From contig NZWD01000004.1 of the NCBI GenBank assembly GCA_002698225.1, forward strand, positions 20,090-84,089: a stretch of 64,000 bases of DNA, in the 5' to 3' direction. The notes beneath the pieces were generated by a model that searched no databases, was not told where the DNA came from, and saw nothing but the letters and a program-made list of their open reading frames with translations. Position numbers and translations under genes: made by a program. The stretch's first letter is position 1, and each line of letters begins with the position of its first letter. This DNA is from Methanobacteriota archaeon (GTDB taxonomy: Archaea > Thermoplasmatota > Poseidoniia > Poseidoniales > Thalassarchaeaceae). Below are positions 1 through 32,240 of the stretch, piece by piece.

Positions 1-3000
1 ATGCTGAGCACCTGACTCAACTTCTGCGGAAGGCGGGCGAAGATCCCTTGGATCCCGGAGGGTACTTCATCATCAATGGGACTGAGAGAGTCCTAATCTC
101 GATGGAGGACCTAGCGCCTAACAGAGTCACCGTAGAGAAGAACAAGAAGTACGCCCACGAAACCGAGGTGGCGAAGATTTTCTCCCAGAGAGACGGAGTA
201 CGTAAGCCAATCAACATCGAGAAGCGCAGAGACGGTATGCTGATGGTGAAGATTCCCAGTGCTGGAACCACTCCAATACCAGTAGTACTCTTGATGCGTG
301 CTCTTGGGATGAGCAACGATCGCGAGATTTTCGCTTCGATTGCCGGACCCGTAGAGGCGATGAAGTACACCGTGGCGAATCTCAATGACGTCAAGGACAA
401 CGAAGAGTATGGAGTTGAGACTGAGGAGGAAGCGATATTGTGGTTGGAGAAGAAGTTCGCTGCCGGCCAACAGAAGGAGTACAGAGAGACTCGAATTCAG
501 AACTTGCTGGACAAGGAACTACTTCCTCATCTAGGAGATTCAGATGAGCACCGCCAGAAGAAGTCCATTTTCCTCGGCCGAATAGTCAGGCAGGTGCTCG
601 AGATGGCGATCTCAGACCGCGATCCGAATGACAAGGATCACTACGCCAACAAGCGAGTCAGACTGGCTGGCGATCTGATGGAAGATCTATTCAGGGTCAG
701 TATGCAGCAACTTTCTAGGGACCTCAAATACCAGTTAGAGAGGCACCACAACCGCAAGCGCGAGTTGAAGATTAACTCCTGCCTCAGGCCGGATGTACTC
801 ACATCCAAGATTATGCACGCTCTAGCTACCGGGAACTGGGTTGGGGGTCGTTCGGGAGTAAGCCAACTCCTCGACAGGACCACGTACATCGCAGCTCTAT
901 CTCATATGCGTAGAGTAACCAGCCCCTTGGTTCGCAGTCAGCCTCATTTCGAGGCTCGTGATCTTCACCCTACACAATGGGGTAGACTTTGCCCGAACGA
1001 GACCCCCGAAGGCCAGAACTGTGGTTTGGTGAAGAACGCTTCTCAGATGATTGATGTGTCAGAAGAAGTGCCTGAGGACGATGTGAAGGAACTTCTCGAA
1101 GAGGCGAATGTAAATTCGTCCCCAGAACAGTGGGCAGACGGATCGAGAATCCACGTCAACGGCGATATATTTGGCCTGCATAAGAGGCCATTAAAACTCG
1201 TTGAGAGAATCAAGAGGAGCAGACGCTCTGGTAGACTCAGGCCTGAAGTCAGTATCAGGCACGACACTGCCAACAGAGATGTATTCATTAATACCGATAG
1301 GGGAAGAGTCCTAAGGCCGTTGCTAGTCATCGAGCATGGTAGCCTAAACCTCAACAAGTTCCACCTCGAAGGCCTACGCTCAGGCGAACTTACATTCTCC
1401 GACTTGGTATCTTCGGGTGTTGTCGAATGGGTCGATGCTGAAGAGGAAGAAGACCTACTTGTAGCTCCACGCCCATTCGACCTACCTCTGATGTCTCCCG
1501 AGCACGGCAGACCAATCAATCCGGCTAAAGTCGAATGGCTAAACCTAGGAGAAGAGGAGATTTCCGAAGCCAAGCTGAGGGTCGAGGTACAACTCTCTAA
1601 CGGAACAACTGTCTTTGAGGAGTTTAACCAACCTCTCAACTACTATCAGGAAGATGTTGATTTATTGAAGAAGAAGGAGAAGAAGGACAATACGATACTG
1701 ATATTTACTCATGTGGAGATAGATCCGCAACTAATTCTCGGTGTATGCGCTTCCCTTGTCCCCTACCCTGAGCACAACTCTACACCAAGAGTCACTGGCG
1801 GTACTGCAATGGTCAAACAGAGCCTAGGACTACCAAGCTCAAACTACCGTCTGCGGCCAGATACAAGGGCGCATGTAATGCATTATCCGCAGCAATCTAT
1901 CGTAGGCACTCGTGCAATGGATTCGACCAATTTCAACACACGGCCGGGAGGGCAGAACTTCGTCGTCGCGATTATGAGCCAGCATGGTTACAATATGCAA
2001 GACGCTGTAATCATGAATCGCGCTTCAGTGGAGCGTGCACTCGGACGTTCGGCCTTCATCCGTACTTACAATGCCGAGAACAAGAGATTCCCAGGAGGCC
2101 AAGAGGAGCGTATTGAAGTTCCCGGCACCGGTCTCGATGAAGTCAAGGGCCTGAAGTCATTCGACAGCTACTCTCACTTAGAGCGAGACGGACTACCTAT
2201 CCCTGAGGAATTCCTCTCGACTCTCGATAAGTCGGAGAATTCGGTCCTAGTGGGTAAGACCAGCCCTCCGAGATTCCTCGAGGAAGCTCATGGCGCATTC
2301 CTCCAAGCCCAAGAGCGAAGGGAATCATCGATGCTCATCAGGCATGGCGAAGAGGGATGGGTCGACAATGTATTCGTTACCGAGTCGCTAGATTCTGGTC
2401 GCCTGGTTCGAATCACCATGAGAACTAACAAGATTCCAGAGTTGGGCGACAAGTTTGCTAGTCGCCACGGCCAGAAAGGTGTGATTGGCCGACTTGTCGA
2501 TGAGAAAGATATGCCCTTCACTGAAGATGGAGTTATTCCCGACCTCCTCATCAACCCTCACGCAATTCCATCTCGTATGACCGTGGCTCACGTTCTAGAG
2601 ATGATTGGAGGCAAGGTTGGTTCGATGGAAGGAAGAAAGATCGACGGCACTGCGTTCACCGGTGAGAAGGAAGATTCGCTTAGAGCTGGTCTGCTGAGGA
2701 ATGGATTCAACCATACTGGCCGTGAGTCGATGATAAATGGAGAGACCGGAGAAGGATACATTGCCGAAGTTTTCGCCGGAGTCATCTACTATCAGAGGCT
2801 GCACCACCTAGTAAGCAGCAAACTACACGCACGCAGCCGTGGAAGGGTACAGATTCTGACCCGTCAGCCCACCGAGGGCCGCGCACGCCAAGGTGGCCTA
2901 AGATTCGGAGAGATGGAGAGAGATTGCCTGATTTCTCACGGAGCCTCGATGGTAATCAAGGACAGGCTCTTGGACGAGTCTGATGGATGGGAAATGATGG

Positions 3001-3188
3001 TCTGCAACACTTCGGGCTGTGGCCACATAGCCTACTATGACTGGAAGCGAAGGACAACGGTCTGCCCTAATTGCGGAGAAAGGTCTGATGTCCACAAAGT
3101 ACAGACTTCGTACGCGTTCAAACTACTACTCGACGAGATGAAGAGTCTCGGAGTAGCCATGCGATTAGAATTGGAGGACCGAAGATGA
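1..3188 (+). CDS. rpoB: DNA-directed RNA polymerase subunit B (Rpo2), unsplit form, N-terminus cut off by the window edge
   Basis: ORF 48..3188 stays open in frame back to the window start. It has the conserved catalytic segment 'GDKFASRHGQKGV', the 'HNSTPR' region and the C-terminal zinc ribbon 'CNTSGCGHIAY...CPNCG'. Its stop overlaps the rpoA' start codon (ATGA). Confidence 0.95.
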   Translation, partial: AEHLTQLLRKAGEDPLDPGGYFIINGTERVLISMEDLAPNRVTVEKNKKYAHETEVAKIFSQRDGVRKPINIEKRRDGMLMVKIPSAGTTPIPVVLLMRALGMSNDREIFASIAGPVEAMKYTVANLNDVKDNEEYGVETEEEAILWLEKKFAAGQQKEYRETRIQNLLDKELLPHLGDSDEHRQKKSIFLGRIVRQVLEMAISDRDPNDKDHYANKRVRLAGDLMEDLFRVSMQQLSRDLKYQLERHHNRKRELKINSCLRPDVLTSKIMHALATGNWVGGRSGVSQLLDRTTYIAALSHMRRVTSPLVRSQPHFEARDLHPTQWGRLCPNETPEGQNCGLVKNASQMIDVSEEVPEDDVKELLEEANVNSSPEQWADGSRIHVNGDIFGLHKRPLKLVERIKRSRRSGRLRPEVSIRHDTANRDVFINTDRGRVLRPLLVIEHGSLNLNKFHLEGLRSGELTFSDLVSSGVVEWVDAEEEEDLLVAPRPFDLPLMSPEHGRPINPAKVEWLNLGEEEISEAKLRVEVQLSNGTTVFEEFNQPLNYYQEDVDLLKKKEKKDNTILIFTHVEIDPQLILGVCASLVPYPEHNSTPRVTGGTAMVKQSLGLPSSNYRLRPDTRAHVMHYPQQSIVGTRAMDSTNFNTRPGGQNFVVAIMSQHGYNMQDAVIMNRASVERALGRSAFIRTYNAENKRFPGGQEERIEVPGTGLDEVKGLKSFDSYSHLERDGLPIPEEFLSTLDKSENSVLVGKTSPPRFLEEAHGAFLQAQERRESSMLIRHGEEGWVDNVFVTESLDSGRLVRITMRTNKIPELGDKFASRHGQKGVIGRLVDEKDMPFTEDGVIPDLLINPHAIPSRMTVAHVLEMIGGKVGSMEGRKIDGTAFTGEKEDSLRAGLLRNGFNHTGRESMINGETGEGYIAEVFAGVIYYQRLHHLVSSKLHARSRGRVQILTRQPTEGRARQGGLRFGEMERDCLISHGASMVIKDRLLDESDGWEMMVCNTSGCGHIAYYDWKRRTTVCPNCGERSDVHKVQTSYAFKLLLDEMKSLGVAMRLELEDRR

Positions 3189-6100
3189 GCGCCCGTGATG
3201 CAGCCAAGATTCCTAAGAGGATTGAGTCAATCAAGTTCAGTTTGATGGATCCCAATGAGATTCGCAAGATGTCGTCAGTAGAGATCAAGACTGCTGACAC
3301 CTACAAGGATGATGGACACGCCTTCAAACAGGGTCTGATGGATCCCAAGATGGGAGTAATTGATCCAGGAATTCGCTGTGAGACCTGTGGCAACAAGCAC
3401 GATGAGTGCCCCAGTCACTTCGGACACATAGCGCTTGAACTACCAATCCTCCATATCGGCTTCACCAACCTAATCAAGACATCATTGAAGTCTACCTGTA
3501 ATACTTGTAGCAATGTGCTTCTGCACAGTTCACCTGAGACTCATCCTCTAGATCCTGAGAAATCTGAGCAGGATTACTATAGGGACCGCGTGCATGATAT
3601 CATGATTAAGCACGGAGTTGGGTCCAGAGAATTCAAGACCATAATCAAGGAGATAGAGAAGGAATGCTCCAGTAAGAAGAGAACTATCTGCATGCATTGC
3701 GGGTCTGAGCAGGGCAAGATTATCCTCGACAAACCTTCCACCTTCAAGGAGAAGAAGGCAGACAAGGGCGAACATAAGCTCAACGCTAGAGACATCAGAG
3801 AGTGGCTTGAGAGAATCCCCGACGAGCACCTAATCTTCCTAGGCATGGACAAGGACTCCAGCCGTCCAGAGTGGACCATCATGAAGGTCCTCCCCGTCCC
3901 TCCGATTACCGTCCGACCTTCAATCACCTTGGATAGCGGCGACCGCTCCGAGGATGACCTAACTCACAAACTCGTGGATGTCCTGAGGATTAATCAACGC
4001 CTACGTGAGAACCGTGACGCCGGCGCGCCACAGTTGATTGTAGAGGATTTGTGGGAACTCCTGCAGTACCACTGCACCACCTACTTCGACAACCAGACTA
4101 GTGGAATTCCTCCTGCAAGACACCGCTCAGGCCGCCCCCTGAAGACGCTTGCACAGCGTCTGAAGGGCAAGGAAGGACGCTTCCGTAGTAACTTGTCCGG
4201 TAAGCGTGTTAACTTCTGCGCTAGAACAGTCATAAGCCCCGATCCGAACCTTGGCATCAATGAGGTAGGGGTACCTGAGAAGACTGCCAAGGAGCTTACA
4301 GTACCTATTCGTGTTACTGGTCGCAATAGAGAGCAGCTGCGTCAGATGATTCTCCGAGGGCCAGATGTCCACCCTGGCGTTAACTACATCATGCGTGGAG
4401 ACAGTTTCAGAGTCAGAATAACTGACCGGACCAAGTACATATGGGCTGGATTCAGGTGCCTCAACCCTGAGTGTGACTCTGGTAGTGAGGATGAGCCATA
4501 TACCGGTTTCAGACCAGATCTCAATGAGGTATTGCCAGCACCCAATTTCCTACCTGGCCTTGAACTAATGAGGCAGAAGAGTCGGAATGCTATAGGAGAT
4601 CTCGAAGAAGAGTGGGGAGTCGACCTCGATGGCACCTTGAACAACCTCAGGGGCGAGGACTCAAGAGGCGCATCATTAGCAGATGACGATTCCAAGGCTA
4701 TCATCCATAACAGGTGGAAGTGGGAACATTCCAACCCTGATGATTTCTTCCCCGACCACCTCGAGGTCCACTGCCCTCACTGTGGCAGTCCTGAGATTGA
4801 AGACGAGTATGGCGGCTCATATCGCACTGAGATAGAAGATAGACTTAGCACCGTCGATAGAGATGGCAACCCCAAGCCAGGAGTGATTGTTGAGAGACAC
4901 CTGATTGATGGCGATGTCGCGATTTTCAATCGACAACCATCACTCCACAGGATGTCTATGATGGTACACGAAATCAGAGTCATGGCCGGCAAGACATTCA
5001 GATTCAATCTGGCAGATTGCACGCCATACAACGCCGACTTCGACGGTGACGAGATGAATCTGCATGTAATTCAGAGCGAGGAGGCCAGAGCAGAGGCCAA
5101 GATTCTGATGCGAGTGCAGGAGCACATCATCACGCCGAGATACGGCGGGAGCGTAATCGGTGGAATCCACGATCACATCTCAGGCGCATATCTCTTGACC
5201 AACGGTAACCGCATTCTGCCCAAGAGTCTCGTACTCGAGATTCTCGGTGCAATCGGTTGGGCAGGAGATCTTCCTGAGGAGGTCGAGAGCAATGGCATGA
5301 TAGGATACCGTGGCACGGATGTCCTTGGCCTAATCGTACCTTCAGGATTCAAGCTCAACTATACCAGCAGAGTAGGCGACGAAGTAACGGTCACGGAAGG
5401 AGATGTCTCTGGTACCATAGACAAGAGGGGAATCGGCGCTGAGGACGGACGCCTGCTCGATGCGGTGGTCCAGACTCACGGCTCGGATGCAGGAGCAGAG
5501 TTCCTCAACCGTATGACCAAGATGACAATCGCGATTTGTACTGCCATGGGCTTCACGACTGGCATAGATGACGAGGACCTACCGCCCGAGGCAAAGGCCG
5601 AAATCATTCAAATCAACGAGAGAGCCAGCCAAGAGGTGGACGATGAGTTGGAGAAGTTCGGCAAGGACGGCCGCAGATATGAGTCTAGACCAGGCCGCAC
5701 TCCATTAGAAACTCTAGAGGAAAACATTCTACAAATTCTAGACAAGGGTAAGGCAGAGTCCGGAGAGGTCGCGAAAGACCATCTTGGCTCAGACAATCCA
5801 GCTGTTATGATGGCTGTATCGGGTGCTAGAGGATCAATGGACAATCTGGCTATGATGGCCGGTTCTATTGGTCAGCCAAAGGTTCGCGGAAAGCGACTTG
5901 AGAGAGGCTATCAAGACCGTGTACTGTCTCACTTCCAGAGGGGCGTCAAGGGGGCCCGAGAGAAGGGATTCGTATCATCTTCGTTCAAGCGCGGCCTCGA
6001 GCCCACTGAGTTCTTCATGCTCTCAGTTTCTGGAAGGGAATCACTCGTTGACACTGCAGTAAGGACTAGCAAGTCTGGTTACATGCAGAGACGACTCATC

Positions 6101-6277
6101 AATGCCATGGACGATCTGAAGGTAGCTGACGATGGGATGAACTCGGTGCGTAATACGGCAAAGCGAATCATCCAGTTCGAATATGGAGAGGATGGGGTCG
6201 ACCCCGCCCGCAGCCGTAAGGGCTCTCCTATCGATGTGACCCAAGCACTCGACGACGCGCTTGGAGGTGAGAACTGA
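3185..6277 (+). CDS. rpoA1: DNA-directed RNA polymerase subunit A' (Rpo1N); carries an extra ~130-aa zinc-ribbon insertion
   Basis: N-terminal zinc sites ('[17 protein letters not shown]'), the active-site motif '[12 protein letters not shown]' and '[12 protein letters not shown]'. At 1030 aa it is longer than a typical A' (~880 aa). Confidence 0.95.
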
Positions 6278-7848
6278 TGGTAGTCAAGAGTGCCACTAAG
6301 AAGAAGCTCATGGACCTCGGCGTCTCTGAGGAGTACGCTCACAAACTCGCCGATGATCGCAAGTGGGACGATGTGAAGATACTGACATCAGGCCAGATAG
6401 CTCAGATTTGCGGTATAGACTCAGGTACCTCGCAAGAGATATTCAATGTCATGGCTGCTTCTGGCAAGCGCTCCCGGGCCGCCACCAAGACCGAGAAGAC
6501 GATAGTCAGGAGGAGGCCTGCATCTAGGCGGAGGAAGAAGAAGACTCTGCCGCTGCAGCAGTATGACTCAGAGTCTAAGATGAAAGAAATACTCAGAGAT
6601 ATTGATGTAGATGATCCAATTTACCAGCAACTCCGTGATGTTTCGATAGAGATGGATGCACCTATCACGCCTAGAGTTCTAGGGGATTTGATGGAGGGCC
6701 TTCGTGCTAGGGGTAAGACCAAACTGAGTAAGTCGGAAGCGAAGAAGGTGATTGAATCCTCGATGGCCTTGTTGGCGGTTTCAAGAGCCGACCCCTATGA
6801 GGCGGTGGGGATTACCACTGCCCAGTCCATTGGTGAGCCGGGAACTCAGATGACGATGCGAACATTCCACTATGCCGGCGTGGCCACTGTCAACGTCACT
6901 CAGGGTCTGCCTAGAGTCATCGAGATAGTCGATGCCCGAAAGGTACCGAAGACTCCGACCATGCTGATTTATCTCGACGAAACTAATTCCAAGGGCAAGC
7001 CGTTGAACACTGACGAGAAGGCTGTGCGTAAGATTGCAGCAGCTCTTGAGATGACGACCACTCTAGACATAGCTCAGCTTGATGTTGATGTGACCCAGCG
7101 CCACATCACGATGAAATTGATCAATAAGAATCTAAGAATCAAGGCGATGAACGGTGCAGAGGTCAGAGACAAACTCTCTCGTGCCCTAAGGCTGTACATC
7201 CAAGCCGACGACGAAGACCGCCCCAAGGTACTAACCATCATTCCGGGTGTAACGAAGGAGGATGATCTTGCTTCTCTAACCTCAGATCCGCCCACTTACA
7301 CTGCACTTCTACAGTTAGAGGAGAAAATCAAGAAGTTGAGATTGAAGGGACTTGCAGGCATCTCCCGAGCTAATATCCAAGGCCCAAGCAGAGACACCGG
7401 TGAGTACTACATTTCCACTATAGGATCCAACCTAGCCGTGGTCAGCGAGTTCGCGGGCGTAGACAGATCTAAGACCTACACCAACAATATCGAAGAAATC
7501 AACAAGTTCCTAGGTATCGAAGCTGCCAGGCAGGCAGTCATCAACGAGATGTCGGACACCCTTGAGGGAGCAGGCCTTGAGGTCGACATACGCCACTTGC
7601 TAACCGTCGCAGATGTAATGACCAGTGAGGGCAACTACCGCGCAATAGGCAGGCACGGAGTCAGCGGAACTAAGCACAGTATCTTGGCTCGTTCCGCCTT
7701 CGAGGTTACAGTTACTCATCTACTGCAAGCCGGCGTAATCGGCGAGCGTGACGAGTTGAGTGGAGTTACTGAGAATATCATAGTAGGACAGCCGGTATCT
7801 CTCGGTACTGGCAGCGTTGATTTGTTCTACATTCCACAGAATGTGTGA
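6277..7848 (+). CDS. rpoA2: DNA-directed RNA polymerase subunit A'' (Rpo1C) with a long N-terminal extension
   Basis: Conserved '[21 protein letters not shown]' and 'LLQAG...GE...[11 protein letters not shown]' C-terminal region. The start overlaps the rpoA' stop by 1 nt. Confidence 0.9.
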
Positions 7849-7857
7849 GGTATTTCT

Positions 7858-8154
7858 ATGGACATTGCAAGACATTTGAAGCAGGGAATGAGTACAGGTA
7901 GGATTGTCTTCGGGCAACGCCAGACTAGAAGCGCTTGTGCAAATGGCGACGCCAGATTGGTCGTCGTCGCAGCAAACTGCCCCCCTGACTACATCACAAC
8001 TCTTTCTGAGAGCCATCCTGATGTCCCTGTTCACCAGGTGCCTTTGGTTAATGGCCAGTTAGGCGCAGCCTGCGCAAAACCCTTCCCAGTCAGTGCGCTT
8101 TGCATTATTGACCCCGGCCAGAGTGACCTGTTATCACTATCATCCAACGTTTGA
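7858..8154 (+). CDS. rpl30e: 50S ribosomal protein L30e
   Basis: 98-aa protein with the L30e signature 'GRIVFG...ARLVVVAANCP'. It sits in the canonical position after rpoA''. Confidence 0.85.
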   Translation: MDIARHLKQGMSTGRIVFGQRQTRSACANGDARLVVVAANCPPDYITTLSESHPDVPVHQVPLVNGQLGAACAKPFPVSALCIIDPGQSDLLSLSSNV

Positions 8155-9169
8155 TCATCAAACCCTTGGGATTGACTTCCCTGCACTTGCGCCAAGCGCT
8201 CTATTCAAGTCCGTCTTACCATCGGCTAACAATGTGGATGGCACTGTCAGAGACCTGTTAGCGGCCCGAGATGTAGTGCTCTCGCCGTCAGAAATACAGA
8301 GGATTCACGGTTTTAATTGCATAGGAATCGCCGAGAAGATCCCCGATCTATCTCTAACCTCGTCCTCACAGGTGCATGTTTGGCACATCACTGACGACCT
8401 TTACCCAGTGACCCCCTCAGAGGTTGAGAGGTGGATGGTAGATGCCCCCCCTGGTAAGCACTGGATTTTGAGTGAGAGGGAATTCGACTCATCACTCATT
8501 GAACAGTCAAATTCTCTGGAAGTAGTAGTTTGGGGGCCAGAGAGGATGGCGAGTTGGATTGGAGAGTCAGTACTATCAGGTGAACTGGGGACATTTCTTC
8601 AAACAGAGGAAGAGATCGAATCTCCTGTAATTAATATTGAGAATGCCTCTTCTGAGAACCAAACTGTGCGAACGCTCAGACCACTCGTCGAACTCAACAA
8701 TTGGTTGGAGCAGAGAGGCTGGGATGGCGCTAGAACCTCACCCGTGCTCCTATCTGCACGTTTATGGGATATTACGGGCACCCTTACGGGTCCGGATGAC
8801 CAGCCAGAGTCTGGGAATTGGCAAATAATTGAGGACCCGTGGGCTTCAACATACCAGATACACGAGGCTGAGCAGGTGTTGGGGAAATCTCCAGCTCTCA
8901 GGATAATGAAGCCCTCCTCTGGCTGGATGGCTGAGCGCGATAGTTTGCCTTCGGAAATGCTCAAACTGGCAGATCAGCGCAGACAGGGAGAGCCTGAGAC
9001 CAATGATGACGAGGTTAGCAGTATCATGCTTGAGTGGTGGAGGCTAGACCAATCTTCTGTCCAGGCCGAATTCTCTCAGTTAACAATTCCTGGATGGATC
9101 ATTTATCTCGAGGGCAATGAGTCGAAGTTGCTACATGGTAGAAACGGTAGACTGTACGAGTTCGATTAG
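8093..9169 (+). CDS. hypothetical protein in the position normally held by nusA; true start uncertain, possibly the internal ATG near 8435
   Basis: Long ORF whose 5' end overlaps the end of L30e in another frame. No KH/GXXG motifs, so it is not NusA-like, and no family is recognised. It ends tail-to-tail against the minus-strand gene at 9170. Confidence 0.4.
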   Translation: MRFALLTPARVTCYHYHPTFDHQTLGIDFPALAPSALFKSVLPSANNVDGTVRDLLAARDVVLSPSEIQRIHGFNCIGIAEKIPDLSLTSSSQVHVWHITDDLYPVTPSEVERWMVDAPPGKHWILSEREFDSSLIEQSNSLEVVVWGPERMASWIGESVLSGELGTFLQTEEEIESPVINIENASSENQTVRTLRPLVELNNWLEQRGWDGARTSPVLLSARLWDITGTLTGPDDQPESGNWQIIEDPWASTYQIHEAEQVLGKSPALRIMKPSSGWMAERDSLPSEMLKLADQRRQGEPETNDDEVSSIMLEWWRLDQSSVQAEFSQLTIPGWIIYLEGNESKLLHGRNGRLYEFD

Positions 9170-10048
9170 TCAATTCCTGCGCAAAGCCATCAGTTCGTCA
9201 GTAGACAGTGTGTCTCCCGACATCAGCCTGGACATCAGATCCGTGACTTCGAGCTTCTCCTCATCGCCCGCGTCTTCTGACTTCTTATCTCTGGAATCCA
9301 TGGCTCTCATCATGTCCACGATGGAATGAATACACCTCAGAGAGACGATATATTGTGAGTGCAATGCATCCGCCTCTCTTTTGGATTTGTTCAACTCTCC
9401 ATGTGCTGAGTTTGCCTTCTCCCTGAGCCTATCAACCTCTTCAGACAATTCCACCATTAGGTCATGAGACTCCTGCGCTCTTCCAACTGAAATCTCAACG
9501 GATTTGTGAGCTTCCTCCTGTGAGGCCTCGGCAACTCTGACAGCATCCTTCAGTTCCCTCATTCCGCCACCGCCTCTCTCTTTCTCCGCGCTTTTTAGCG
9601 CCTCTGAGAGTTGCTTCATTTTCTTGTGATAATCGCGCTCTCTCTTGCCTAGGAACTGGCCGGTCATATACTGTTTTTCTAGCCTCTCCATGTCCGACCT
9701 TATCTTGCCTGGAGGGGGGCCTCTTGAACGCTTAGAGTTGGCTCCAGAATCTCCTTGCTCAGCGAGTTTTTCCCTGAGTTCATCACGAACCAACTTGAGA
9801 TGCTTAGATTTTTCAGCACGAATTTCCTTCAGTTCCTTGACTCTGCTATTGATTTCATCCCTAACGGACTTCTGTGACTGGACCTCATTGATGAGCTCCT
9901 TTACTTGACGATTAACCTCATTTCTCTCGTCTAGGTGTTGTCTTACCTCTGCATTCCAATGGTCTCTCTCGTCCTTGTTCAATTCGGACTTCTGGACCAT
10001 AGTCTCAGATAGTGGCTGGAGAATAAGCCGGACTTCGTCAAATTCCAC
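9170..10048 (-). CDS. coiled-coil protein, paralog 1 (COG1340-like archaeal coiled-coil family, assignment tentative)
   Basis: 292 aa, highly charged with strong heptad character ('ERNEVNRQVKELINEVQSQKSVRDEINSRVKELKEIRAEK'), and a Gly-rich break in the middle. Confidence 0.6.
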   Translation of the reverse strand: MEFDEVRLILQPLSETMVQKSELNKDERDHWNAEVRQHLDERNEVNRQVKELINEVQSQKSVRDEINSRVKELKEIRAEKSKHLKLVRDELREKLAEQGDSGANSKRSRGPPPGKIRSDMERLEKQYMTGQFLGKRERDYHKKMKQLSEALKSAEKERGGGGMRELKDAVRVAEASQEEAHKSVEISVGRAQESHDLMVELSEEVDRLREKANSAHGELNKSKREADALHSQYIVSLRCIHSIVDMMRAMDSRDKKSEDAGDEEKLEVTDLMSRLMSGDTLSTDELMALRRN

Positions 10049-30323: not shown

Positions 30324-32240
30324 ATGCGTCTAACACTGAGTGAATTAAAGAAGAAGATATCCAAATTGGTCCCCAGTGATATCAATTACGAAGTCGACCT
30401 AGAGGCAGGCTCCATTTCGATAATTACAGACCAGCCGGCAGCCTTCGGTGGCTCGGGCGAAAATCTCACAGTCAAGATTGCTAAGTCAGTGAAGCGACGC
30501 ATAGTTATCCGACCACATCCTGATTTGTTGGCCGATGAGGCTGCTGTTCACGATGCTATCCTGAAATTCATCCCCGATGAGGCGAAGCTGCGCAAGACCT
30601 GGTTAGATCCTGCTATTTCCCAAGTCATTCTAGAATGCGATGATCCATCTTCGGCAGTCGGACCAAAGGGATCCAACATCAAGGCATTGAGGGATGAGAT
30701 TGGGTGGCTGGTCGATGTAGTCAGAGCCCCAGCAATCGAGAGCCGGACTCAACATGATATCAGGCGTTTCCGCAAGGAAATGGCAGATGAGAGAAAGTCC
30801 TTACTGAGAAAGTTCGGGACTAGAATCTATCGCCCTCCTAGACCCGGTGAATCATGGGTTCGTGTCACTGCCCTTGGATCGTACCGAGAAGTCGGCAGGG
30901 CAATGCATCTTGTGACCACTAATGAGTCCAAGGTACTTGTTGACTGTGGAGCGAAGCCTACTACTAATCGCAGCGAGGTCGAACCTTTCTTCACCGCTCC
31001 CGAACTACTTCCTCTTGACAATCTCGATGCCATAGTCATCACACACGCTCACATAGACCACATTGGTATGCTCCCTGTTCTGTTCAAGTACGGCTACAGA
31101 GGGCCAGTCTACTGCACTCCTCCAACTAGAGATTTGATGACTTTGCTTCAAATTGACTACATCAAGGTGGCAAGAGCGGAAGGCAATGAGCCACCTTATT
31201 CCAAAGCAGACATACAGGAATGTATCAAACACATTGTGGATGTCAACTGGGGAGATAAGACCGATGTCTCTCCTGACATTAAGATGACAATGGAAAATGC
31301 TGGACACATCCTCGGTTCATCCAGCGTTTACATGCAGATAGGTGAGGGCAAGGGTGAGCATAAGCTGTTGTTCTCGGGCGATATCAAGTATGAGAAATCT
31401 TGGTTGTTCGATGCCGCTACTGTCAGGTTCCCAAAGGTCGAGACGCTGGTCATCGAGTCCACTTACGGGGGGCCTCAGGATATCCAGCCGACTAGACAGC
31501 AGGCCAGCCAAGAGTTGCAGGATCTCATACAAGACTCATTGGGAAGGGGTAGCAAAATATTCTGCCCTGTATTCGCCGTTGGCCGCTCCCAAGAGGTCAT
31601 GATAGCAATCGACCAGTTATTCAAATCGGGCAATATTAAACCGGTCACAGTCTGGCTCGACGGAATGATTTCAGAGGCTACTGCGATTCACTCCAGTCAC
31701 CCCAATTTCCTCAACAGAGACCTCAGAGGTAAGATGCTGAAGGGCGGTGCTGAAAATCCATTTAATTCACCTTGGTTCAAGCAGGTTGATTCAAGAGAGC
31801 AGCGCGAGAGTATTTTACTTGACCCTAGTCCATGCATAGTCCTAGCTACCAGTGGAATGATGACTGGTGGTCCGATTGTAGAGTACTTCAAGAACTGGGC
31901 ACCTGAGCCCAGTAACACTCTGTGCTTCGTTGGATACCAAGCATCTGGTACACTGGGAAGACGACTTCAGCAGGGTCACCCTCAAGTCCCACTCTCCGAC
32001 GGAGGTCAGACACTGATGGTCGATGTTAGATGCAATACTGTTACTATCGACGGATTCAGTGGGCATTCTGATAGAAATCAGCTCTTCGATTATGTCTCCG
32101 CCCTAAATCCGACTCCTCGAAAAATCATCTGCCATCATGGCGATCCTCAGACCTGTAATGCTTTCAGGCAGGGTTTGAGAGAGAGATTCAGAGTTCAGAC
32201 ATACGCCCCTGCTAACCTAGAGACACTCAGGTTGACATAA
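30324..32240 (+). CDS. aCPSF1 / FttA (KH-domain beta-CASP metallo-beta-lactamase ribonuclease)
   Basis: 638 aa with N-terminal KH domains, the MBL motif 'VITHAHIDHIG', and beta-CASP motifs. Confidence 0.9.
   Translation: MRLTLSELKKKISKLVPSDINYEVDLEAGSISIITDQPAAFGGSGENLTVKIAKSVKRRIVIRPHPDLLADEAAVHDAILKFIPDEAKLRKTWLDPAISQVILECDDPSSAVGPKGSNIKALRDEIGWLVDVVRAPAIESRTQHDIRRFRKEMADERKSLLRKFGTRIYRPPRPGESWVRVTALGSYREVGRAMHLVTTNESKVLVDCGAKPTTNRSEVEPFFTAPELLPLDNLDAIVITHAHIDHIGMLPVLFKYGYRGPVYCTPPTRDLMTLLQIDYIKVARAEGNEPPYSKADIQECIKHIVDVNWGDKTDVSPDIKMTMENAGHILGSSSVYMQIGEGKGEHKLLFSGDIKYEKSWLFDAATVRFPKVETLVIESTYGGPQDIQPTRQQASQELQDLIQDSLGRGSKIFCPVFAVGRSQEVMIAIDQLFKSGNIKPVTVWLDGMISEATAIHSSHPNFLNRDLRGKMLKGGAENPFNSPWFKQVDSREQRESILLDPSPCIVLATSGMMTGGPIVEYFKNWAPEPSNTLCFVGYQASGTLGRRLQQGHPQVPLSDGGQTLMVDVRCNTVTIDGFSGHSDRNQLFDYVSALNPTPRKIICHHGDPQTCNAFRQGLRERFRVQTYAPANLETLRLT

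Follow-up and report, generated by a model that had tools for sequence, protein, structure and literature searches.

What stands in place of nusA at the end of the RNA polymerase gene cluster of a Marine Group II archaeon (order Poseidoniales), and is the missing gene a local accident or a property of the lineage? These questions were raised by a first-pass annotation of a 64,000-nt stretch of DNA, here termed the window, in which rpl30e is followed by an ORF of about 300 aa. The cluster starts just upstream of the window with the gene for RpoH (195 aa; G000:C19:18967-19554; Rpb5_C at residues 95-191). ORFs read upstream of the window showed that rpoB is whole and unsplit (1237 aa, with its start at C19:19564). 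Within the window, all on the plus strand, follow the 3' part of rpoB (48-3188; Pfam Rpb2 domains 1-7), rpoA' (3185-6277; 1030 aa; Rpb1 domains 1-5), rpoA'' (6277-7848; 523 aa, including an N-terminal extension of ~80 aa; Rpb1_5) and rpl30e (7858-8154; 98 aa; Ribosomal_L7Ae, E = 4e-14). The ORF in question comes next, as an open frame of 358 aa on the plus strand (8093-9169), and is met by a convergent minus-strand gene for a DUF7121 coiled-coil protein (9170-10048; PF23435, E = 4e-12). RpoA' matched Rpb1 domain 2 in two separate stretches, and in RpoA'' positions 49-265 of the Rpb1 domain 5 profile were spread across residues 83-468, which suggests that both subunits carry lineage-specific insertions. 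An Rfam scan of 7700-9500 returned two sub-threshold matches, both attributable to chance.

Absence of NusA from Poseidoniales and a sister family

Searches with TIGR01952, the curated archaeal NusA model, found no nusA in any frame of the 68%-complete assembly that contains the window, and the first-pass annotation was thus right that the gene is missing here. The model recognized all 14 control genomes and had no match in any of the 61 genomes of the order (48 of which are ≥90% complete). Across the phylum, 80 of 121 genomes matched, with counts of 0/8, 0/13 and 0/1 for the families labelled f1, f3 and f4, respectively. At E up to 0.1, none of the 81 genomes searched from the class rose above the cut-off. 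NusA was detected in 0 of 38 genomes of the sister family f4, where the weak TIGR01952 matches were identified as ribosomal protein S3. Family f42 of the same class carries a 68.6-bit NusA-like gene directly after rpl30e, giving the order rpoA'-rpoA''-rpl30e-nusA-like.

A second, phylum-specific profile built from five NusA sequences produced only hits of ≤21 bits in the order. These were KH hits in frames of ~640 aa and ~250 aa and were rejected as NusA; the ~640-aa frames of relatives gave the best of them. In the window, a 645-aa frame shows weak KH_5 and KH_2 hits (E 0.03-0.09) at ~30620-30740 (C19:50710-50826) and may, we presume, represent the KH/beta-CASP termination factor aCPSF1. Searches with KH_5, KH_2 and KH_1 in five genomes, two of them single-contig, recovered S3, a long KH-bearing ORF, an ORF in the exosome region and one protein with two KH domains. 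The two-KH ORF, located on contig C35, was rejected as NusA on the grounds that it is arCOG04150 (155 bits against a cut-off of 114) and adjoins Rio1.

NusA hence appears to have been lost in the whole order and in family f4, and this clade-wide absence is the most solid and most reportable result of the analysis. TIGR01952 also matched 0 of 12 genomes (2.7-3.0 Mb) of f16, a family of the same phylum outside the class; given f16, the loss may extend beyond the Marine Group II lineage. Two reviews state that NusA homologues are encoded by every archaeon (PMC7289017) and are present in all archaeal phyla (PMC8116511). Full-text literature searches turned up no report of NusA loss for Marine Group II, MGII, Poseidoniales or Thermoplasmatota.

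One of two explanations put forward in the first-pass annotation was a rearrangement breakpoint. With nusA found in none of the 61 genomes of the order, its absence from the window is better read as a clade-wide loss than as a local breakpoint, and that explanation was abandoned. The annotation had also remarked on the absence of rps12, rps7 and fusA from the neighborhood. These genes do lie elsewhere, rps12, rps7 and EF-2 (fusA) forming a cluster of their own on the minus strand of contig C3 (C3:43309-39949). In four other genomes of the phylum with nusA beside rpl30e, rps12 is never next to nusA; in three of them, the next recognized gene downstream of nusA encodes an epimerase, a Mut7-C RNase or, beyond two unassigned frames, an aminotransferase fragment, and the fourth has nusA upstream of rpl30e. 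Lack of the str genes at this place therefore does not set the genome of the window apart.

A conserved gene in the position after rpl30e

Among 5.8 billion clustered proteins, the ORF had 97 homologues, all of them unnamed or labeled 'hypothetical', with source names that include 'Candidatus Poseidoniales archaeon'. Most were 305-315 aa long and covered ~87% of the 358-aa frame. Aligning 34 homologues gave 24 invariant columns and N-termini, of the form M/V-[DE]-x-x-V-R-x-L-L, that lined up with a GTG codon at 8234. The gene is therefore located at 8234-9169 on the plus strand and encodes 311 aa followed by TAG. A spacer of 79 nt lies between it and rpl30e, and the family that it represents is new and restricted to Poseidoniales. 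The description of an ORF on the same strand as rpl30e thus stood and gained a conserved gene, but the overlap of reading frames claimed with it did not survive the new start. An ATG at 8435, previously suggested as a plausible internal start, was discarded since it falls within the conserved N-terminal domain.

Rates of substitution were estimated from 13 coding sequences (the window and 12 loci), which provided 12 pairs with >60% amino-acid identity. In the five pairs with dS ≤1.02, dN/dS was 0.11-0.18; one further pair was near saturation (dS 3.28) and six were saturated. The 311-aa gene is under purifying selection. The idea that the ORF is no gene at all, and that its frame at the operon's end is open by chance, could draw on the lack of a family match in any library searched and on metatranscriptome contigs that give no cover of the ORF; it is already refuted by conservation, in the form of 97 homologues with invariant residues, and by the dN/dS values, and a confident two-domain structure prediction also speaks against it. 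Conservation and coding signal, on which the first-pass annotation had made its own proposal depend, were thus both found. As to RNA data, seven of 13 runs contained a small share of the stretch, and contigs of four of these, all marine metatranscriptomes, were compared. They cover parts of rpoA'', the start of rpl30e and the DUF7121 gene, and none lies over 7958-9288, which says nothing on expression or co-transcription.

The range of the family was examined with a profile of 34 sequences. The gene was found in 34 of the 61 genomes of the order: in all 29 of family f1, both of f2 and two of 29 in f3, the latter two from one genus. The 81 genomes of the class that were searched added, outside the order, a single fragment, of 105 aa and at the edge of a contig (f4 1/38, f42 0/2). 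A filter-free HMM search of 1.84 billion representatives returned 96 hits at E ≤1e-3, all of ~300 aa or shorter pieces, and no fused or multidomain relative was among them. On the evidence of these searches, the family does not extend beyond Marine Group II archaea (Poseidoniales). Gene order was compared at 20 loci from 20 of the 34 matching genomes, comprising the 12 best-scoring and eight chosen to span other genera. At all 20, from three families of the order, rpoA'', rpl30e and the gene share a strand, and the spacers measure 28-168 nt. Of the four genes compared, this one evolves fastest: where it retains, for example, 41-51% identity, the values are 62-78% for rpl30e and 75-86% for rpoA''. 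One genus has a longer form, with a frame of ~375-384 aa (L020 5484-6608; G015:C4), in which the profile matches two stretches, 1-130 and 133-310, with an insertion in the linker between them.

At its 3' end, the gene runs tail-to-tail into the minus-strand DUF7121 coiled-coil gene, as had been described: its stop codon (TAG, 9167-9169) abuts the TGA stop on the minus strand with no spacer. Given the abutting stops, at 9167-9172, the two genes' transcripts must either overlap or end within one another. In relatives, the stops are separated by gaps of a few bases.

The spacer upstream of the gene contains a hexamer, TTCAAG (8204-8209, plus strand), 30 nt before the start codon, as a candidate TATA-like promoter element. 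Searching the 20 orthologous spacers for TT[ACGT]AA[AG] revealed TT[C/G]AA[A/G] at -28 to -31 in 14 of them, in spacers that are otherwise divergent. The whole assembly contains TTCAA[AG] 1021 times; offsets of +29 and +30 accounted for 28 and 23 starts, respectively, of ORFs of at least 100 codons, compared to 3-20 for each of the other offsets between 10 and 69. For the looser TT[N]AA[AG], the corresponding counts across the assembly were 57 and 47 at 29-30 nt before starts versus 7-35 elsewhere, and another example precedes 15820. The hexamer is absent before the operon-internal genes rpoA', rpoA'' and rpl30e. We infer a TATA-like element for leaderless or short-leader mRNAs, which suggests that the 311-aa gene has its own promoter and can be transcribed alone. 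Position and conservation of the hexamer also support 8234 as the start. As the spacer lacks any run of ≥4 T, read-through from rpl30e is possible as well.

Predicted domains of the 311-aa protein

Library searches left the protein without an assignment. Pfam, searched at E up to 5, assigned none of 34 members to a family, NCBIfam contained no match to the protein family and PADLOC profiles for anti-phage defence matched 0 families when seven diverse members were searched at E up to 1. Judged by these comparisons, the gene in the nusA slot is the founder of a protein family that none of the libraries searched (Pfam, NCBIfam, PADLOC) contains. This agrees with the first-pass observation that the ORF has neither KH motifs nor a recognizable family. 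The protein lacks hydrophobic segments (highest 19-residue hydropathy 0.7). Its pI of 4.46 compares with a proteome median of 4.94 (593 long ORFs); since the proteome itself is acid-shifted, charge and pI of the protein do not discriminate.

AlphaFold2 run on the 34-sequence alignment (pLDDT 79.4) predicted two domains with a disordered, acidic linker between them (residues 122-143). The N-terminal domain comprises residues 1-118 (8234-8587) and is predicted to adopt a restriction-endonuclease-like, PD-(D/E)XK fold. The variable linker, residues 119-145 (8588-8668), has a pLDDT <50 at 122-143, poorly conserved columns and a median net charge of -3. Residues 146-311 (8669-9166) form a β-rich C-terminal domain with no recognized fold. 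Folded alone as residues 141-311 with 18 sequences, the C-terminal part reached a pLDDT of 88.7 and a pTM of 0.80, and Foldseek searches of it against PDB and BFVD returned nothing at E ≤1e-3. We, therefore, regard this confidently predicted domain as a candidate new fold.

The predicted N-terminal domain has the alpha-beta-beta-beta-alpha-beta core that defines the PD-(D/E)XK superfamily. With the whole model as query, Foldseek recovered no PDB entry at E ≤1e-3, and a sequence profile search of PDB chains gave chance matches only (E 0.42 and 1.5). A Foldseek-independent comparison with 48,161 PDB representatives matched residues 1-113 to proteins of the restriction-endonuclease fold. The best was AF1548 (1y88_A; score 8.5, rmsd 2.5 over 98 residues), and the matches included LlaBIII (4xqk_A, 6.5), Cdn1 (8z4i_A, 6.1), MspJI (4f0p_A, 6.0) and AspBHI (4oc8_A, 5.8), along with the N-terminal domains of Rpb5 from African swine fever virus (ASFV; 8q3b_E, 5.8), Pol IV (7eu0_E, 5.3) and Pol V (8hil_E, 4.7). 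The likeness to the Rpb5 N-terminal jaw (eukaryotic, ASFV) is no stronger than that to many nucleases. Another two-domain archaeal protein, the TBP-interacting protein Tk-TIP26 (PDB 2czr), is an inactive endonuclease-fold, transcription-linked protein. It matched the N-terminal domain only, as a weak Foldseek match at rank 41 (probability 0.21), and the C-terminal domains of the two proteins were unrelated in every search.

Conservation within the N-terminal domain was assessed in a 59-sequence alignment. Columns kept at ≥85% were mostly W, G, P and L; W50 and G110 were kept in 59 of 59 sequences, R82 in 55 and D70 in 53, and H51 was not kept. The predicted strands 27-33 and 47-52 carry no conserved acidic residue or lysine, and D70 and R82 lie elsewhere. 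A relationship to Mrr-like catalytic domains was looked for in several ways. At E up to 5, none of the 34 members matched the Pfam profile Mrr_cat (PF04471), which also found nothing in the genome, and hhalign against nine Mrr_cat domains from the phylum gave a probability of 0.5%. Neighbors in the ESM Atlas beyond the protein's own family include Mrr_cat clusters with scores of 0.89 and 0.78, which serve as leads only. The N-terminal domain thus has no detectable sequence relationship to AF1548-type or Mrr-like domains (1y88_A, PF04471) and, unlike in these, is fused to an unrelated C-terminal β domain. Because nothing conserved in the family corresponds to the invariant D and K of the Mrr_cat alignment, we favor a non-catalytic endonuclease-fold domain.

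Candidate roles of the protein and their implications

The overall reading that we prefer, with confidence a little short of even, is that 8234-9169 is a real gene found only in Poseidoniales, probably with its own promoter, and that it encodes a soluble, acidic two-domain binding protein of non-catalytic nature in the slot of the lost nusA. Loss of NusA from the whole order and the sister family would have vacated the slot 3' of rpl30e, in which the 311-aa gene now sits, probably transcribed from its own promoter. Its product, built from an endonuclease-fold N-terminal domain without a conserved D...(D/E)xK, a disordered acidic linker and the β-rich C-terminal domain, would act as a binding or adaptor protein and not as an enzyme, by analogy with other inactivated endonuclease-fold domains.

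The three alternatives, from the more to the less probable, are that the protein is an active nuclease, a polymerase factor resembling a jaw, or a substitute for NusA. A PD-(D/E)XK-type nuclease engaged in DNA repair, restriction-like functions or RNA processing would be unrelated to transcription, having arrived at the end of the rpo operon after the loss of nusA and been kept there by gene-order inertia. The fold of the N-terminal domain, with nucleases as its best structural matches, fits such an enzyme, as do the Mrr_cat clusters among its language-model neighbors, and D70, E81 and R82, all largely conserved, could form an atypical active site. The gene is moreover the fastest-evolving of its neighborhood and dispensable in most of family f3, its downstream neighbors are syntenic too, and unrelated genes fill the position after rpl30e in sister lineages. 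We nonetheless consider an active nuclease unlikely, given that the strands on which the fold would place the motif lack a conserved D...(D/E)xK, that H51 is variable, and that neither the family libraries (Pfam, NCBIfam, PADLOC) nor the hhalign comparison with Mrr_cat connected the protein to a nuclease. What fills the slot elsewhere varies: one f3 genome has rpl30e followed by a gene for a 1186-aa repeat protein, and in all three f4 genomes examined (L070, L071, L072) a same-strand gene of 631-636 aa comes next. The latter, transketolase-like in the two genomes scanned and an odd neighbor for a polymerase operon, was dismissed as a relative of the 311-aa gene.

These other occupants bear on the possibility that the protein is a non-orthologous replacement for NusA, binding nascent RNA or modulating elongation. 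It occupies exactly the slot after rpl30e held by the nusA-like gene in f42, and NusA was found in no genome that carries it. Archaeal NusA (TIGR01952) and the 311-aa gene (20/20 loci) share this slot in position only, with no homology implied: NusA has ~140 aa and two type-II KH domains with GXXG loops, whereas the 311-aa protein is twice as long, has a different predicted fold and showed no KH domain in 34 members at E up to 5. Aligned by hhalign with five Thermoplasmatota NusA sequences, the family reached a probability of 0.3%. Both domains of the protein are acidic, and 27 of 29 f3 genomes and 37 of 38 f4 genomes do without NusA and the gene alike. As NusA-less sister lineages carry other genes after rpl30e, the ORF is probably no NusA substitute, and we hold that role to be very improbable. 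A role as accessory subunit or factor of RNA polymerase in Poseidoniales, with the endonuclease-fold domain acting like the Rpb5 N-terminal jaw from a separate gene, strikes us as improbable too, if less so. It would account for the invariant adjacency to rpoH-rpoB-rpoA'-rpoA''-rpl30e at 20 of 20 loci, and RpoH and RpoA'' of the clade bear unusual N-terminal extensions near the site where a jaw module would be expected. However, the Rpb5 matches are no better than those to a dozen unrelated nucleases of the same fold, the gene has a promoter-like element of its own and evolves much faster than any polymerase subunit, and most of f3 lacks it yet keeps both extensions. Unlike in Rpb5, moreover, the domain is not fused to an RpoH-like one; RpoH has a gene of its own (195 aa) ahead of rpoB, at the opposite end of the operon, and its extension is a different one. 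A complex prediction of RpoH with the 311-aa protein scored 0.00 in both runs and counts neither way. Of the novel polymerase-operon-associated factor proposed in the first-pass annotation, the conserved adjacency has thus held up, and it is this adjacency only that suggests a role with RNA polymerase; the functional link is weakened by the gene's own hexamer, its presence in just two of 29 f3 genomes and the other genes found in its slot.

The extensions of the polymerase subunits are a feature in their own right. The first ~80 residues of RpoH are paralogous to the N-terminal extension of RpoA'' (window 6277-6520), with E = 4e-12 in this genome, and Pfam gave no match to the first 50 residues of RpoH. 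All 31 genomes of the family have the long RpoH, 26 of them at full length, and in 30 of the 31 a second match lies in RpoA''. Five f3 genomes have a like match upstream.

Returning to the preferred reading of a non-catalytic binding protein, its boldest extension, to which we assign only a slim chance, is that a Marine Group II ancestor lost NusA and that a newly invented protein, combining an inactivated Rpb5-jaw-like endonuclease fold with a β domain of unseen fold, took its place at the end of the rpo operon, where it would serve as a lineage-specific partner in transcription. The C-terminal domain, confidently predicted and without a structural match in PDB or BFVD, is of interest as a candidate new fold irrespective of such a role, and as the host organisms are uncultured, the 311-aa gene offers a specific target for heterologous study. 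Marine Group II is an order of globally abundant marine archaea. If the loss of NusA holds, this abundant order and its sister family would contradict the statements of universal NusA in the two reviews cited above and would provide a natural NusA-free system for asking what role NusA has in archaea.
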